From the sequence record NC_049822.1: a stretch of DNA of 51,739 nucleotides; one strand, given 5' to 3'. This document shows positions 2,839 to 43,764 of the stretch, one piece after another. Below the pieces are notes generated by a model. That model did no database searches and was not told the DNA's origin. It saw nothing but the letters and a program-made list of their open reading frames with translations. Made by a program: the position numbers and the translations under genes. Source of the stretch: Escherichia phage vB_EcoS_G29-2. Positions within the stretch are counted from its first letter, which is position 1; each line of letters opens with the position of its first letter.

Positions 2839-3069
2839 ATGTATATTAACAAGAAGATGAAATGCGTTTCCGTTAACTATGGTTGTGCTGGAATGTTCAA
2901 GCCTGGCGAAATCTATACGGCGCAAAAGCTGAAATCATCAACCGGATCCTTTTACGTGAGCAATAGTAAAGGGCATCGCATGTTCCTGAACGGTGGCGAA
3001 GGAACTAAGGTTATGGCGCACGCTATGGTAATTGCTGAATTTGAGGAAGTGAAAGATGGAAACAAATAA
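2839..3069 (+). CDS. hypothetical protein
   Basis: RBS GAAGGAGA 7 nt upstream of ATG 2839; in frame with track ORF 2776-3069. Confidence 0.5.
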   Translation: MYINKKMKCVSVNYGCAGMFKPGEIYTAQKLKSSTGSFYVSNSKGHRMFLNGGEGTKVMAHAMVIAEFEEVKDGNK

Positions 3070-3277
3070 GCGCGTTAAACACAAGTTTATTGATAATCAT
3101 GGTGATGCACTTGAGGTATACAAGTTTGGTGATCGCGTGTTTATTGATGGCACGTTTGAAGGTGGGCGCAGGCCGGATTTTAGGTCGATACTCACCATTA
3201 ACCAGGTGCGCAAGCTGGCGGATAAGTTAAATGATCTGGCAGATGAAATCGAATACAAGCAAATCCACTTTAATTGA
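3056..3277 (+). CDS. hypothetical protein
   Basis: 73-aa ORF overlapping upstream stop. Confidence 0.5.
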   Translation: METNKRVKHKFIDNHGDALEVYKFGDRVFIDGTFEGGRRPDFRSILTINQVRKLADKLNDLADEIEYKQIHFN

Positions 3278-3288
3278 TAGGTTTGATA

Positions 3289-3909
3289 ATGAAAAAATAC
3301 GAATTTGAACTTTGGGGCAGCAAATACCATTTTTCCACGAGCAAGCCGATTGTTATTGTTGATCTGGACGGCACTTTATCCGATGGAACGCATCGCTTGC
3401 ACCTGCTTCCGACAGAAGATTTACACCTTACAGAAAGCTGGTCTGAGTTCAATAAGGCGGCTTTTGGCGATTCGCCGATTAAGAGCACGGTTGCAGTGGT
3501 TAACGGATTATGGATGTCAGGATTTGCTATTGTTATCCTGACCGGACGTAGCGACGAAGTGATGGCGGACACCTTCAAATGGCTTAATGAAAATGGCGTC
3601 AAGTACGACGCATTAATCATGCGCCGCAAGGAAGACAACCGCAAAGACACAATCATCAAAGAAGAAGTCTTACGCGCTATCGGACTGGAAAACATTGTGT
3701 GCGCTTTTGATGATTCGCCGAACGTGGTTAAGCACTTCCGCAGTCTGGGGATCACAACCTATCAGGTCACGGAATACGACAAGCCACATAATCACATCCA
3801 ATCGCACGGCGTGGATGAATTGAAGCCAAAAATCGAATGCGAAGGCGAGCACTGTTTTAGTGTGGTTGATGGTAAATGTTTGCGTTGCGGCGTGGAGGGT
3901 TTGAAATGA
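3289..3909 (+). CDS. HAD-superfamily phosphatase (Pnk 3-prime-phosphatase-like), C-terminal Cys cluster
   Basis: motif IVIVDLDGTLSD (DxDGT) near N-terminus; C-terminal CEGEHC...CLRCG. Confidence 0.65.
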   Translation: MKKYEFELWGSKYHFSTSKPIVIVDLDGTLSDGTHRLHLLPTEDLHLTESWSEFNKAAFGDSPIKSTVAVVNGLWMSGFAIVILTGRSDEVMADTFKWLNENGVKYDALIMRRKEDNRKDTIIKEEVLRAIGLENIVCAFDDSPNVVKHFRSLGITTYQVTEYDKPHNHIQSHGVDELKPKIECEGEHCFSVVDGKCLRCGVEGLK

Positions 3910-4067
3910 CCTGGTTACTTTTAATCTTTGTCACAAGTTACAACTCCGCCGCTATTGAATCGCATGAGTTCCACGGCGAATCAAGATGTCAGGAAGCACG
4001 AAAGCAAGTTGTTCTCCACATGTCAGATAGTGGAAAAGATGTAACGGCGTTATGTGTCCGTAAATAG
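3906..4067 (+). CDS. small hypothetical protein with hydrophobic N-terminus
   Basis: ATG overlaps upstream stop (ATGA); stop embedded in motif copy at 4064. Confidence 0.4.
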   Translation: MTWLLLIFVTSYNSAAIESHEFHGESRCQEARKQVVLHMSDSGKDVTALCVRK

Positions 4068-4109
4068 CACTTTTTGCAAAAACAGATTGTTGGGCTTGCG
4101 GTATAGTAA
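4064..4109 (+). promoter_or_regulatory. conserved motif promoter (hairpin GGGCTT/AAGCCC around -10 TATAGT)
   Basis: motif then 18 bp then TATAGT. Confidence 0.55.
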
Positions 4110-4138
4110 GCCCATCGACAACGAAAAAGGAAAACATC

Positions 4139-4438
4139 ATGTTAGTTCGTAATGCGATTTATAAATTCACCAACGAGATGGGAGTTCAACTTTACCACGT
4201 AAACCATCAAGGCCACACATCAATTGCGATGTATCGCGACGCTCGCGGGAAGTGCAAACCTTCTCTGTGTGGCAGAATTTCTCCTGCGTTCTTCATGTTC
4301 AGATGGTATGCAACAGAACAAAGCAACCATAACCATTGGAATAAAGTATTGGTTGCAGGAGGCCGAATTGTTGCCAGCCACGTAGTCGATCCGCGCAAAC
4401 TAACAAGTCGCCAGCTTCGCAAAATGGCGCGCAAGTGA
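4139..4438 (+). CDS. hypothetical protein
   Basis: 99-aa ORF downstream of motif promoter and leader CCATCGACAACGAAAAAGGA. Confidence 0.55.
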   Translation: MLVRNAIYKFTNEMGVQLYHVNHQGHTSIAMYRDARGKCKPSLCGRISPAFFMFRWYATEQSNHNHWNKVLVAGGRIVASHVVDPRKLTSRQLRKMARK

Positions 4439-4454
4439 TAGAGGAGAAGAACAA

Positions 4455-4640
4455 ATGATATATGCACTTGTATTTTTGGTGATTTTCTTTTATATTTCAG
4501 GACTATTCATCTTCCGAGCATTGGTTAAAGAGTGTGATTGCACGGATAAAGATCAGCCTCTTGTTCTGATGTTCTGGTTTGTGTGGTTTTGGGTGGCGCT
4601 TTACCAGATTGTACGGGATGAAAGCGGCTTTAAGTGGTGA
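4455..4640 (+). CDS. small membrane protein (2 predicted TM segments)
   Basis: RBS GAGGAGAA; hydrophobic stretches IYALVFLVIFFYISGLFIF and LVLMFWFVWFWVALY. Confidence 0.5.
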   Translation: MIYALVFLVIFFYISGLFIFRALVKECDCTDKDQPLVLMFWFVWFWVALYQIVRDESGFKW

Positions 4641-4695
4641 TTCTTGCTATAGCGCATTCATGCAGTGCGCTATGTTGAGATAACAACAGGAGATC

Positions 4696-4833
4696 ATGAA
4701 GATGCGAAACTTCGAAAAAATCGTAACCAAAAAGAAGCGCTACAGCTATGACGAGCACCGCGAGATGAATCAACGCTATCGCAAGAAGCCACAGCGCCCA
4801 GGTAAACATTCAAGCAGACATGGAGAAAACTAA
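4696..4833 (+). CDS. small basic protein (45 aa)
   Basis: not in ORF track (<60 aa); RBS AGGAG 6 nt upstream; fills gap before kinase gene. Confidence 0.3.
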   Translation: MKMRNFEKIVTKKKRYSYDEHREMNQRYRKKPQRPGKHSSRHGEN

Positions 4834-4834
4834 T

Positions 4835-5425
4835 ATGAAGCGCGACATTATCATCCTTAACGGACCGCCAGGAGTTGGCAAGGATACGCTTGCGGCATAC
4901 TTAACGGGCCATCGTTACGCAGCCGTTAAAGCGTCGTTTAAACAGCCTATGTTTGATATTGCGTTTTCCATGCTTGGCGTTTACCGATATGACGAGTTCA
5001 TTGATCTGTATAACGACCGCGAGCAGAAAGAAAAGCCTCAAGCAATCTTGCAAGGCAAGTCTCCTCGCCAGTTCATGATCTGGATTAGCGAAGAAGTTAT
5101 GAAGCCAGCTTTTGGCGAGCAATATTTCGGAAATCGCATGGTTGAGCAAGTACACGAGATGTACAGAGATTTGGCTGTTGTAATTAGTGATGGCGGATTC
5201 CCTGAAGAAATAAAGCCGCTCGTTAAGGCAGGCCATGAAGTTCACATTTGCCGACTGCATCGCGAAGGCTTCACGTTTGATGGCGATTCACGAAACTATA
5301 TTGACCTGAACGGATACCATCACCGAGTAAAACATTACGACTTCACAATGATTGATGGCGATCCAGAAAAGACTGTTGACGAGATCATCAAAACGGTCCA
5401 GTGGAAACACATTAAGATCAAATAG
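4835..5425 (+). CDS. P-loop nucleotide kinase (dNMP kinase-like)
   Basis: Walker A GPPGVGKDT; resembles phage deoxynucleoside monophosphate kinases; stop in motif copy at 5421. Confidence 0.65.
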   Translation: MKRDIIILNGPPGVGKDTLAAYLTGHRYAAVKASFKQPMFDIAFSMLGVYRYDEFIDLYNDREQKEKPQAILQGKSPRQFMIWISEEVMKPAFGEQYFGNRMVEQVHEMYRDLAVVISDGGFPEEIKPLVKAGHEVHICRLHREGFTFDGDSRNYIDLNGYHHRVKHYDFTMIDGDPEKTVDEIIKTVQWKHIKIK

Positions 5426-5466
5426 CACGAATTGCTAAAAGCGGGGCGCAATGCCTCGCTATAATG
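5421..5466 (+). promoter_or_regulatory. conserved motif promoter (variant, -10 TATAAT)
   Basis: AATAGCACGAATTGCTAAAAG then 18 bp then TATAAT. Confidence 0.5.
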
Positions 5467-5495
5467 CAAACACCAATCAACGAGAGGACTTGAAC

Positions 5496-5900
5496 ATGTT
5501 AGAGCTTAACGACATTCGCGTAGGCACAAAATTTCGCGTAACCTGGGTATATGATGAGCGATGCGGCATTCGCAAAGGTGAGATTGTAACAGCTTCCGAT
5601 CGTTATATCGGATCTTTAAAAGAGTTTAACCGACCACGCATCAAGAATGGCTATATCATTACTCGACGACTTGGCTTTGATCATTATTGCGTAGTGGCAA
5701 CTCAAGGCGTTTTGATTGAGCTTAAGCGAATCAGCGATCATCGAGGCTGCCATGTTAAGACAATGAAAATGCCATTTCAGCGAGCGCGATACGATGCGCG
5801 ACGTATGCGCCGACTTGCGCGAAATGCGATCAAGTTCAAAAAGCCTGGTAATGATTTTTACGTCATGTACAATGGGATTGCGCGAAATGCTGGGAAATAA
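5496..5900 (+). CDS. hypothetical protein
   Basis: RBS GAGAGGA; in frame with track ORF 5451-5900. Confidence 0.5.
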   Translation: MLELNDIRVGTKFRVTWVYDERCGIRKGEIVTASDRYIGSLKEFNRPRIKNGYIITRRLGFDHYCVVATQGVLIELKRISDHRGCHVKTMKMPFQRARYDARRMRRLARNAIKFKKPGNDFYVMYNGIARNAGK

Positions 5901-5999
5901 CAACAACGCAACCAATCCTAAGCCACCGTTTGATTTTCATGAAATCATGATTGTGTTATTCTTGATTCTCTTATTTATTTATTCAGTGAGGGCCGCACT

Positions 6000-6263
6000 A
6001 TGGTTTTTAACGCACTAAAACGAATCTTTAAACCTGAATACCGGATCGTTGCTTGCACAGAATGCAAGATTTATTATCTGCAACGCCGCCGCGTTATTGG
6101 TGGGGATTGGGAATACCTGACGGATGATGCTTTCGGCTTTTGGGCTATGGAGTTCAATAGCTACAGCGAAGCGCGTGAATACGCTAAAAAGTTGCATAAG
6201 TTCAGACCTTACAAGCTGCGTTTGCTGGTTGTTAAAAAATGCGACGTATGGGATCACGTATGA
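6000..6263 (+). CDS. hypothetical protein (Cys-x2-Cys)
   Basis: 87-aa ORF, RBS GAGGG. Confidence 0.5.
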   Translation: MVFNALKRIFKPEYRIVACTECKIYYLQRRRVIGGDWEYLTDDAFGFWAMEFNSYSEAREYAKKLHKFRPYKLRLLVVKKCDVWDHV

Positions 6264-6436
6264 AAAGAGTAATTATCACCTTTATTGCCCTTATCGCTGG
6301 TTCTCACTTGGCCTATGAGTATAGCGGCATTGTTGAGTCAATCGGCGGAATGATTATCTTCCTGGCTGGCGCATATTACGGCTACGGCGATGGATTTAAA
6401 AATGGCAAGCGTTACATCCTGACTGGTAAGAAATAA
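6260..6436 (+). CDS. small membrane protein
   Basis: ATGA overlap with upstream stop; hydrophobic IITFIALIAG and MIIFLAGAYYGYG. Confidence 0.45.
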   Translation: MKRVIITFIALIAGSHLAYEYSGIVESIGGMIIFLAGAYYGYGDGFKNGKRYILTGKK

Positions 6437-6479
6437 TGTTTAACCGCGCCGCTTCTGTGGCGCTAAAAGGAGGAAACAA

Positions 6480-6767
6480 ATGGCTAAAAGCAATCGTAAG
6501 ATGTTGATTAACGCATTCGAAAAGGCAGCGCTTGAGCGTGGTTGGAATGACTCATTTCACACGGCAAACTGTATCCGACGTTACGGATTCAAGAATTGCC
6601 GCTCCTGGGCGCGTCAAATGGCTTCATGGTATGATTTTGATGCGCATTATCTTGATATGGATTGCGCCCTAGTCGAAATGATTGAGCAGGCAGCGCTAGA
6701 GGATAGACCGTTGACGCAATCTGATTTTGACGATTTTGTTCGCGATGAAATCTATTACATGAGCTAA
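6480..6767 (+). CDS. hypothetical protein
   Basis: RBS AAAGGAGGAAA; stop in motif copy at 6766. Confidence 0.55.
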   Translation: MAKSNRKMLINAFEKAALERGWNDSFHTANCIRRYGFKNCRSWARQMASWYDFDAHYLDMDCALVEMIEQAALEDRPLTQSDFDDFVRDEIYYMS

Positions 6768-8828: not shown

Positions 8829-8853
8829 ACCCGCCAAATGGCGGGTTTTTTAT
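8829..8853 (+). terminator. rho-independent terminator (end of early region)
   Basis: CCCGCC-AAAT-GGCGGG + TTTTTTATT. Confidence 0.75.
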
Positions 8854-42648: not shown

Positions 42649-43764
42649 ATGAAGCAAATCAAAATCACAGATGAACAATTTATCAATGAGCGCAAGCAGG
42701 GAAAGACATATAAGCAGATAGCTAATGAGTATGGTATGAACGTTCGCAGCATTGAGCGACGCGCAGCGCGACTTGCAAAGCAAGGTAAAGTTACAACCAT
42801 CGGATCACCTGGCTTTGGCGTTACTGGAGAATCAAAGCTAATTGATAAAGATGGCAATGTGGTTATGACATGGATTAAGACAAGCAAGGACCGCGAGCAG
42901 TTAGAAGCATTAATGCAGGCCGCTATGGATGCATTTAGCGAAGAAGTTCCGCGACTTGATCCGCAACCAGAATCACAAAAGGATTATAGCGAGACGTTAT
43001 CACTGTATCCGATCTTTGACATGCACTTGGGCGCAATGGCGCATAAGCATGAATGCGGAGAGAATTGGGATACAGCAACAGCAGAGCGCGTAATGAATAA
43101 TTTCATTGATTATTCTATCCAGTGCGCGCCGGATAGCGAAAAAGCTGTTTTGCTGATTGGTGGCGATATGCTTCACAGTGACGGACTTGAAGCGGTTACA
43201 CCTGCAAGCGGTCACGTATTGGATCAAGATAGTCGATACGCAAAACTTGTTTATGTTGCCATCCGGTCAGTGCGTCGAGCAATCACAAAGCTGTTATCAA
43301 AACATAAAAACGTAGAGATTCAGATAATTGAAGGCAACCACGACCAAAGCGGCATGATCTGGTTGCGCGCAGCAATGGCGGCAGCATATGAGAATGAGCC
43401 GCGAGTGCATGTTGATGTGTCTCCGCGAGTGGTTCATCACACACAATATGGCAAAACATTCCTGGCATACCATCATGGGCACACTATCCGCAAGCCTGAA
43501 ACATTGCTCATGATGTGTGCGGCAGACTGGCGCGAAGACTTCGGAAATTCAAAAATGATGTATGCTCACGTAGGGCACTGGCATCATCAGACAGTAACTG
43601 AAACAAGCCTGGGCATTGTTGAAGTGCATAGCACTATGGCGGCAAAAGATGCATATGCGGCGCGCGGTGGATGGCGTTCTCGACGCCGTGCGGCTGTTAT
43701 TGTTTACGATAAAGAATACGGAGAGGTAGGGCGATTTATGCATTATCCAGAAATGGCTTATTGA
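42649..43764 (+). CDS. calcineurin-like metallophosphoesterase with N-terminal HTH domain
   Basis: motifs GGDMLHSDG, GNHDQ, GHWHH; N-terminal YKQIANEYGMNVRSIERRAARL; RBS AAGGAG. Confidence 0.65.
   Translation: MKQIKITDEQFINERKQGKTYKQIANEYGMNVRSIERRAARLAKQGKVTTIGSPGFGVTGESKLIDKDGNVVMTWIKTSKDREQLEALMQAAMDAFSEEVPRLDPQPESQKDYSETLSLYPIFDMHLGAMAHKHECGENWDTATAERVMNNFIDYSIQCAPDSEKAVLLIGGDMLHSDGLEAVTPASGHVLDQDSRYAKLVYVAIRSVRRAITKLLSKHKNVEIQIIEGNHDQSGMIWLRAAMAAAYENEPRVHVDVSPRVVHHTQYGKTFLAYHHGHTIRKPETLLMMCAADWREDFGNSKMMYAHVGHWHHQTVTETSLGIVEVHSTMAAKDAYAARGGWRSRRRAAVIVYDKEYGEVGRFMHYPEMAY

Follow-up and report, generated by a model that had tools for sequence, protein, structure and literature searches.

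Two genes of a T1-like phage, one for a phosphatase and one for a kinase, raise the question of whether their products work as a pair, and, if they do, whether this pair serves the salvage of nucleotides or the repair of broken nucleic acid ends. The genes are found in Escherichia phage vB_EcoS_G29-2 (NC_049822.1), in a stretch of 51,739 nucleotides (nt) that was analysed at its full length and is referred to here as the window. An earlier note, made from the letters alone, called attention to a phosphatase of the HAD type (3289 to 3909, + strand, 206 amino acids, aa) and to a P-loop kinase (4835 to 5425, + strand, 196 aa), and described them as a split pair similar to polynucleotide kinase (Pnk), i.e., to the bifunctional kinase-phosphatase Pnkp of phage T4. 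Both open reading frames (ORFs), the DxDGT signature of the first product, its C-terminal cluster of cysteines, the Walker A motif of the second product and the small ORFs between the genes were all present as described. From a survey that included 80 viral contigs and approximately 10 annotated genomes, the pair appears to be a kinase-phosphatase module made of a stand-alone Pnkp-type phosphatase and a nucleotide kinase of the T4 gp1 type. Family membership, conservation of the active sites and genetic linkage were demonstrated for this pair. We consider that the 3'-phosphatase and the gp1-type kinase have about an even chance of being a coupled pair devoted to the salvage of host DNA, which is the likeliest of the roles that were considered.

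The HAD Phosphatase

The product of the upstream gene is, according to its family and fold assignments, a Pnkp-type phosphatase and a predicted 3'-phosphatase. It passes the curated threshold of the Pfam family HAD_PNKP (PF25109), with 79.3 bits versus a cutoff of 27.6 (E = 4e-22), and its match to phrog_415 is at 7e-67. Among the sequences of the PDB, the only significant matches were Pnkp1 (4xrp), which belongs to the RNA repair complex Pnkp1/Rnl/Hen1 of Capnocytophaga, and T4 Pnkp; likewise, the comparison of the HAD family profile with T4 Pnkp gave a probability of 96%. The AlphaFold model of the protein is of moderate quality, with a mean predicted local distance difference test (pLDDT) value of 70 and values of 80-90 in the core. 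When this model was compared with the PDB using Foldseek, the first 21 matches were all Pnkp phosphatase domains (Pnkp1 and T4 Pnkp), and its template modelling (TM) score against the isolated T4 phosphatase domain was 0.67. The agreement of Pfam, PDB, profile and Foldseek results bears out the Pnk-type assignment made in the earlier note.

The active site is also well conserved. HAD motif I, DLDGT (aa 25-29; 3361 to 3375, + strand), contains the putative nucleophile D25 and the putative general acid D27. Residues D165, D167, R176, R213, D254, D277 and D278 of T4 Pnkp, reportedly found by the Shuman laboratory to be essential for the phosphatase activity, align with D25, D27, R36, R87, D120, D141 and D142 of the HAD protein, and these seven residues are invariant in a family alignment of 17 relatives. 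The gene is called 'polynucleotide kinase' in hundreds of T1-like, Webervirus, Kagunavirus and other genomes; this database label is a misnomer, since the protein consists of the phosphatase domain alone, without a kinase domain.

The region that follows the HAD core includes a His-rich motif, KPHxHxQSHGV (aa 166-175; nt 3784-3813), that is invariant or nearly so in the relatives but to which nothing in T4 Pnkp corresponds; binding of a metal or docking of a partner may be its role. The C-terminal cysteine cluster that had been singled out as unusual is real, and corresponds to a Cys/His knuckle, CEGEHC-x7-CLRC (aa 184-200; 3838 to 3888, + strand); however, this tail is optional, and close relatives may lack it or carry another one in its place: they have either no tail (179 aa), the knuckle, an unrelated domain of approximately 57 aa (236-237 aa in total), or both (264 aa). 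In the AlphaFold2 model the confidence of the knuckle is approximately 50, i.e., it is not confidently folded.

The gp1-type Kinase

Pfam and NCBIfam scans of the downstream product gave only P-loop matches, all of them below threshold, and a PDB sequence search with this protein gave no significant match. For this reason its identity was sought from PHROGs, structure prediction and profile comparison, and these are the basis of the assignment. The kinase matches phrog_139, 'deoxynucleoside monophosphate kinase', at 1e-51; judging from their scores, this match and those of the HAD protein to PF25109 and phrog_415 are far beyond what chance would give. The Walker A motif, GPPGVGKDT (aa 10-18; 4862 to 4888, + strand), has the GKDT ending in common with T4 gp1 (GVKRSGKDT). 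Profile comparison of the kinase with gp1 extends over 73 columns through the nucleoside monophosphate (NMP)-binding region, with an LxGKSP motif in common, whereas the comparison with T4 Pnkp ends after the P-loop and reveals no Pnk-type similarity beyond it. In agreement with this, tblastn searches of the window revealed that T4 Pnkp matches the HAD gene only and that T4 gp1 matches the kinase gene. By homology and by fold, the window kinase falls among the T4 gp1-type deoxynucleoside monophosphate (dNMP) kinases, and the profiles indicate that it is homologous to T4 gp1 and not to the kinase domain of Pnk. The resemblance to phage dNMP kinases that the earlier note had perceived was therefore well founded, given the phrog_139 match and the gp1 profile match.

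The residues that form the substrate site of gp1 (PMC10653934) were located in the kinase. Residues R68, R132, M135, W152, D175, E181 and R197 of gp1 correspond to R62, R78, M81, F98, D119, E125 and R140, all of them invariant or conserved; among these, the equivalents of the two arginines that bind the phosphate of the dNMP, R62 (gp1 R68) and R78 (gp1 R132), are invariant in the kinase family. When the T4 Pnk kinase domain was aligned with the kinase family using MAFFT, the result could not be relied upon past the P-loop, and for this reason it was excluded from the residue mapping. In a comparison made by position only, without a reliable Pnk alignment, the invariant K36 of the kinase lies 20 residues after the P-loop K16, where T4 Pnk has its catalytic general base D35, and no invariant acidic residue was found near K36. 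The candidate explanation that the kinase is the missing half of a split T4 Pnkp was ruled out by its homology to gp1 and by the lack of a position equivalent to the Pnk catalytic Asp. From these characteristics, the protein resembles a nucleotide kinase of the phosphate-accepting kind, in which the acceptor pocket has been modified, and does not resemble a Pnk.

Clear assignment of both genes to unrelated families had been named beforehand as the outcome that would contradict a Pnk-like pair. What was found lies in between, since the kinase belongs in the dNMP-kinase family but the phosphatase stays in the Pnkp family.

Linkage of the Two Genes

The linkage between the two genes was surveyed in 80 viral contigs from IMG/VR that encode a relative of the kinase, using profiles of both proteins. 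A HAD_PNKP gene was found upstream of the kinase gene, on the same strand and at a distance of no more than 2.1 kb, in 71 of these contigs, and no other arrangement was ever observed; in the remaining nine loci the kinase had no detectable HAD partner. The two genes abut or overlap in 22 of the 71 contigs. The stop codon of the HAD gene and the start codon of the kinase gene overlap by 4 nt in the Klebsiella Webervirus NJS1 and in the Pseudomonas phage MR4, a member of the Autographiviridae, and in the Yersinia myovirus YenM_12 one gene lies next to the other; altogether, overlapping stop and start codons occur in at least three unrelated phage groups. Phage T1 itself (L083, 48,836 bp; 4954-6534) has both genes, separated by 483 nt. 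In the window the gap is 925 nt, with four small ORFs inside it, and among the T1-like contigs it goes from 49 to 2,072 nt; given this variability, the spacer is better understood as an insertion hot spot than as a mark of independence of the two genes.

Proteins that combine an N-terminal HAD_PNKP domain with a gp1-like kinase in a single chain were found by an exhaustive profile search, which gave 4,436 hits. One of these fusions, P0257, has 403 aa and is present in three contigs, one of them of 60.7 kb; P0387 and P0263 are 74% and 37% identical to it, respectively, and the three proteins, found on at least five contigs, have a homologous linker. The possibility that the fusions are assembly errors was rejected on these grounds, i.e., three sequences that are 37-74% identical to one another in this comparison, a homologous linker, and the presence of one of them on three contigs. 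The degree of divergence indicates that the HAD-kinase fusions are real and have been maintained over time.

A third gene is frequently associated with the pair. This gene, annotated as 'DNA repair exonuclease' (phrog_704), encodes an N-terminal helix-turn-helix (HTH) domain and a region with weak similarity to metallophosphoesterases. Of the 22 abutting pairs, 21 have it directly upstream of the HAD gene, and so do NJS1, MR4, YenM_12 and the Raoultella phage RP180; in the contig L092 it is directly downstream of the gene for a HAD-kinase fusion. In RP180, a Kagunavirus (L093; 1880-4046), the genes for phrog_704, HAD and kinase are joined in a cassette of three, overlapping at their ends, which is located on the opposite strand in the middle of the tail-gene cluster and resembles a mobile accessory module. 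Accordingly arranged genes in several phage groups indicate that the three of them are a cassette. In the window, the HTH and metallophosphoesterase gene (42649 to 43764, + strand; phrog_704 at 3e-151) adjoins the lysis genes, apart from the HAD-kinase pair, and its product is 42-43% identical to the partners in MR4 and in the fusion contig L092; the three-gene module appears to be dispersed in the lineage of the window.

The linkage bears on a reading in which the proteins are two independent enzymes, e.g., a general nucleotidase and a nucleotide kinase of the housekeeping type, that became neighbours only through the clustering of genes for DNA metabolism. The 925 nt and four unrelated ORFs that separate the genes in the window are in line with it, as are the nine loci of 80 with a kinase and no detectable HAD gene, and the large phages in which the kinase is paired with other genes. 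However, independent enzymes would hardly explain the fixed gene order, the overlapping stop and start codons in at least three unrelated groups, the travel of the cassette into a tail-gene cluster, or the three diverged fusion proteins, and we regard this reading as improbable. Because the genes are overlapping or fused in other phages, the HAD protein and the kinase would be expected to work together, and their pattern of occurrence strongly suggests that they are functionally linked. Regarding the split Pnk-like pair proposed initially, the functional linkage is upheld by gene order, overlaps and fusions, but the kinase is of the gp1 type, so that the two proteins are not the halves of a T4 Pnkp.

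Host-DNA Salvage or End-Healing

The genes that surround more distant relatives of the kinase give an indication of its role. In Vequintavirus-like and Iguana-like phages, distant homologues of the kinase adjoin the genes for thymidylate synthase (thyA) and ribonucleotide reductase (nrdA). The HAD gene that follows these kinase genes is a different one, phrog_420 (L088, 4584-5198; L090, 4606-5199), with the motifs DVDLT and IIDDR and a weak similarity to mitochondrial 5'(3')-deoxyribonucleotidase. Comparison by hhalign of the window HAD family with the phrog_420 HAD of Iguana-like phages gave no match, and therefore the two were considered to be different subfamilies. A further homologue of the kinase, in phage phiEcoM-GJ1 (L004, 2250-4226), stands without a HAD partner; a short DNA ligase gene overlaps it on the upstream side, and a gene for dUTPase is next downstream.

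Degradation of the host chromosome, followed by re-use of the nucleotides, has been reported for T1 and TLS, through enzymes that are still unidentified (PMC11447400), and a recent survey reads both genes as part of an extended nucleotide supply (PMC13164509). In the published map of T1, an HNH endonuclease is listed beside the PNK and the dNMP kinase. A salvage module is therefore the reading that we favour, in view of the kinase relatives beside thyA and nrd, the re-use of host DNA by T1 and TLS, and the published interpretation as nucleotide supply; the substrates and the pathway described below are what we infer for the pair. The phrog_704 nuclease, together with host enzymes, would cut the host chromosome. 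The HAD phosphatase would then strip 3'-phosphates from the fragments, from 3'-mononucleotides or from 3',5'-bisphosphates, so that 5'-dNMPs would be obtained, and the kinase would turn these dNMPs into deoxynucleoside diphosphates (dNDPs) for the synthesis of phage DNA. A fusion of the two proteins would be sensible if the product of the phosphatase is the substrate of the kinase. In the ancestral state, the HAD and kinase genes would have formed a single translationally coupled operon, usually with the phrog_704 metallophosphoesterase/nuclease; in the Hanrivervirus lineage, to which the window is related, small ORFs would have been inserted between the pair and the nuclease gene would have come to lie elsewhere in the genome.

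Several points weigh against host-DNA salvage. The characterized members of the family of the HAD protein act on polynucleotide ends, and a 3'-phosphatase has no obvious role if the host DNA is cut to products with 5'-phosphates. Residue R177 of gp1, which binds phosphate and base, is replaced in the kinase family by an invariant glycine (G121), and K37 of gp1 is out of register and maps to F40, the invariant K36 being one turn away; from these differences, the acceptor of the kinase may not be the same as that of gp1. A self-contained cassette placed among tail genes, and the DNA ligase that neighbours the pair in MR4, fit a repair or accessory role equally well. In addition, the literature yielded no biochemical study of the kinase clade or of the stand-alone HAD clade.

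Some of these observations are the ones expected if the pair heals DNA ends. In this alternative, the gp1-like kinase would phosphorylate 5'-OH DNA ends and the HAD phosphatase would remove 3'-phosphates, while the phrog_704 nuclease would trim the ends; nicks or breaks of the phage DNA could then be sealed by the host LigA, or by a phage ligase where present. The conservation of all the Pnkp catalytic residues in the HAD protein is consistent with this role, and so are the tight association of the pair with a nuclease-like metallophosphoesterase, the presence of a DNA ligase gene directly downstream of the pair in MR4, and the existence of fusions kept over long divergence with the domain order of mammalian PNKP; the loss of R177 of gp1, which is invariant, is a hint of an altered acceptor site. 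Nevertheless, the kinase is homologous to gp1 and not to Pnk, the position of the general base after strand 2 is occupied by an invariant Lys with no acidic residue, and the gp1 arginines that hold the phosphate of the dNMP have been kept. Moreover, the distant homologues of the kinase sit in thyA/nrd clusters, and the ligase queries described below found no ligase in the window. Healing of DNA ends, including the trimming and sealing steps, is a tentative alternative that we consider rather unlikely. A related and somewhat more doubtful proposal is that HAD, kinase and phrog_704 make up a mobile and self-contained end-processing cassette, in which an enzyme derived from a dNMP kinase would have been recruited as a 5'-OH polynucleotide kinase; this would amount to an independent invention of Pnkp, whose fused form would have the domain order of the mammalian enzyme, used to heal phage DNA or RNA when defence nucleases of the host have cut it and left ends with 3'-phosphate and 5'-hydroxyl groups.

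The last possibility concerns RNA. The pair could heal transfer RNA (tRNA) ends produced by host anticodon nucleases, as T4 Pnkp does with Rnl1, and it is true that the closest solved relatives of the HAD protein come from RNA repair, i.e., Pnkp1 of the Pnkp1/Rnl/Hen1 complex and T4 Pnkp. However, tblastn searches of the window with T4 Rnl1, T4 DNA ligase and the ligases of MR4 and GJ1 gave only E values above 0.1 (the queries did not include T4 Rnl2), and the annotation of aaroes, a near-identical phage, lists no type of ligase; the earlier note had already remarked the lack of an RNA ligase motif nearby. No RNA or DNA ligase homologue being found in the window, RNA repair was rejected; in addition, the kinase does not belong to the Pnk type and tRNA genes are absent from the window. 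We know of no ligase in E. coli for RNA ends with 5'-phosphate and 3'-hydroxyl groups, and the removal of 3'-phosphates would counteract RtcB. A role against anticodon nucleases, one of the two alternatives offered initially, is accordingly very improbable, and nucleotide salvage, the first of them, is the better reading. Searches of the literature for anti-defence roles, or for a combination of phosphatase domain, dNMP kinase and host DNA degradation, found nothing relevant.

Genome Setting of the Locus

The 2.9-kb region around both genes (window positions 3000-5900) has its counterparts in Escherichia phage aaroes and Shigella phage SFP17 with 96-97% identity (96.7% for aaroes), and it is also matched by more than 100 further T1-like phages of the genus Hanrivervirus (Drexlerviridae, Tempevirinae). 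From these matches it was concluded that the 51.7-kb window is essentially the complete genome of a Hanrivervirus-like, T1-like phage. The annotation of aaroes corresponds to the standard gene complement of T1-like phages, and the two genes themselves are ordinary annotated members of such genomes. The same region is also matched by 20 GenBank records named 'Campylobacter phage' with C. jejuni as the host, of which MG065667 encodes a kinase with 93% amino-acid identity; the C. jejuni host assignment of these records looks doubtful.

Both enzymes are encoded within a + strand block of approximately 25 small genes, located between a promoter-like site (455 to 483, + strand; 11/12 consensus matches) and a GC-rich terminator-like hairpin at its end, close in front of the gene for the small terminase (8829 to 8846, + strand); both of these sites are consensus matches only. 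The four ORFs of the spacer are also on the + strand. The first one (3906 to 4067, 53 aa) overlaps the stop codon of the HAD gene, matches phrog_5579 at 3e-08, corresponds to gp31 of aaroes and seems to be a lineage-specific insert. It is followed by an ORF of 99 aa (4139 to 4438; phrog_8382 at 7.5e-17) and by a hydrophobic one of 61 aa (4455 to 4640; phrog_9755 at 3e-28), both of them annotated in aaroes; the three PHROG families matched by these ORFs are of unknown function. The fourth is a small basic ORF of 45 aa (4696 to 4833) that ends 1 nt 5' of the kinase start and has an annotated counterpart in JLBYU41. The start codon of the kinase is likely the one at 4835 and not the ATG at 4820, since the homologues have 196 aa and begin with MKRD, and a GGAG sequence lies approximately 10 nt upstream. 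Elsewhere in this part of the genome, the ORF at 1818-2765 (315 aa), matched by phrog_7116 in two stretches, shows an apparent internal duplication, with IKFPITFESRG at around aa 7 and IKYPITFRSAG at around aa 127.

Significance of the Pair

The linkage of the pair as operon, cassette or fusion is not described in the papers that could be searched. The gp1-like partner of the so-called polynucleotide kinase is often annotated just as 'hypothetical' or 'ATP-binding', and the evolutionary coupling of the two genes, seen as operon, cassette and fusion, makes a single testable hypothesis out of a pair of vague annotations. If host-DNA salvage is true, part of the long-missing machinery with which T1-type phages re-use the host chromosome would be identified; on the other hand, if the kinase acts on polynucleotide ends, the module would mean that an end-healing enzyme with kinase and phosphatase activities has arisen a second time, independently, and it might be of use as a reagent.

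Comparison with Known Systems

As mentioned above, the proteins of the pair resemble different enzymes of T4. The HAD protein is similar to the phosphatase domain of T4 Pnkp (pseT) in its membership of PF25109, its DxDxT motif, the equivalents of the seven catalytic or essential residues and a fold that counts among the nearest of the solved ones. In contrast with T4 Pnkp, it stands alone, without a Pnk kinase domain, and its partner kinase is of another type; it also has a longer invariant insert after motif I, the KPHxHxQSHGV tail and the optional Cys/His knuckle. The kinase, for its part, has the GKDT P-loop and the LxGKSP motif of T4 gp1 (PDB 1DEK), and the equivalents of R68, R132, M135, D175, E181 and R197. 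Nevertheless, their identity is only 14-17%, an insert of approximately 36 residues present in gp1 is absent from the kinase, an invariant Gly takes the place of R177, K37 does not fall in register, and the lid is longer, with an invariant DSR motif.

Mammalian PNKP is a DNA end-healing enzyme formed by an FHA domain, a HAD phosphatase and a P-loop kinase. The metagenomic fusions P0257, P0387 and P0263 follow the same order, with the phosphatase before the kinase. The kinase of mammalian PNKP, however, is of the Pnk type and has the catalytic Asp, whereas that of the phages is of the gp1 type; moreover, the phage proteins have no FHA domain, and in the window they are encoded by separate genes.

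Closer systems are found among the phages. The genes annotated as 'polynucleotide kinase' and 'dNMP kinase' in the Drexlerviridae (T1, TLS, KanT1 and Webervirus) are the same genes as those of the window; genome papers of this family list both of them and suggest, on the basis of annotation, a role in nucleotide supply (PMC13164509, PMC11447400). The pair formed by the kinase and the phrog_420 HAD in Vequintavirus-like phages is similar in that a gp1-like kinase adjoins a HAD gene with DxDxT and DD motifs; it differs from the pair of the window in the HAD subfamily, in the opposite gene order and in its thyA/nrdA context.

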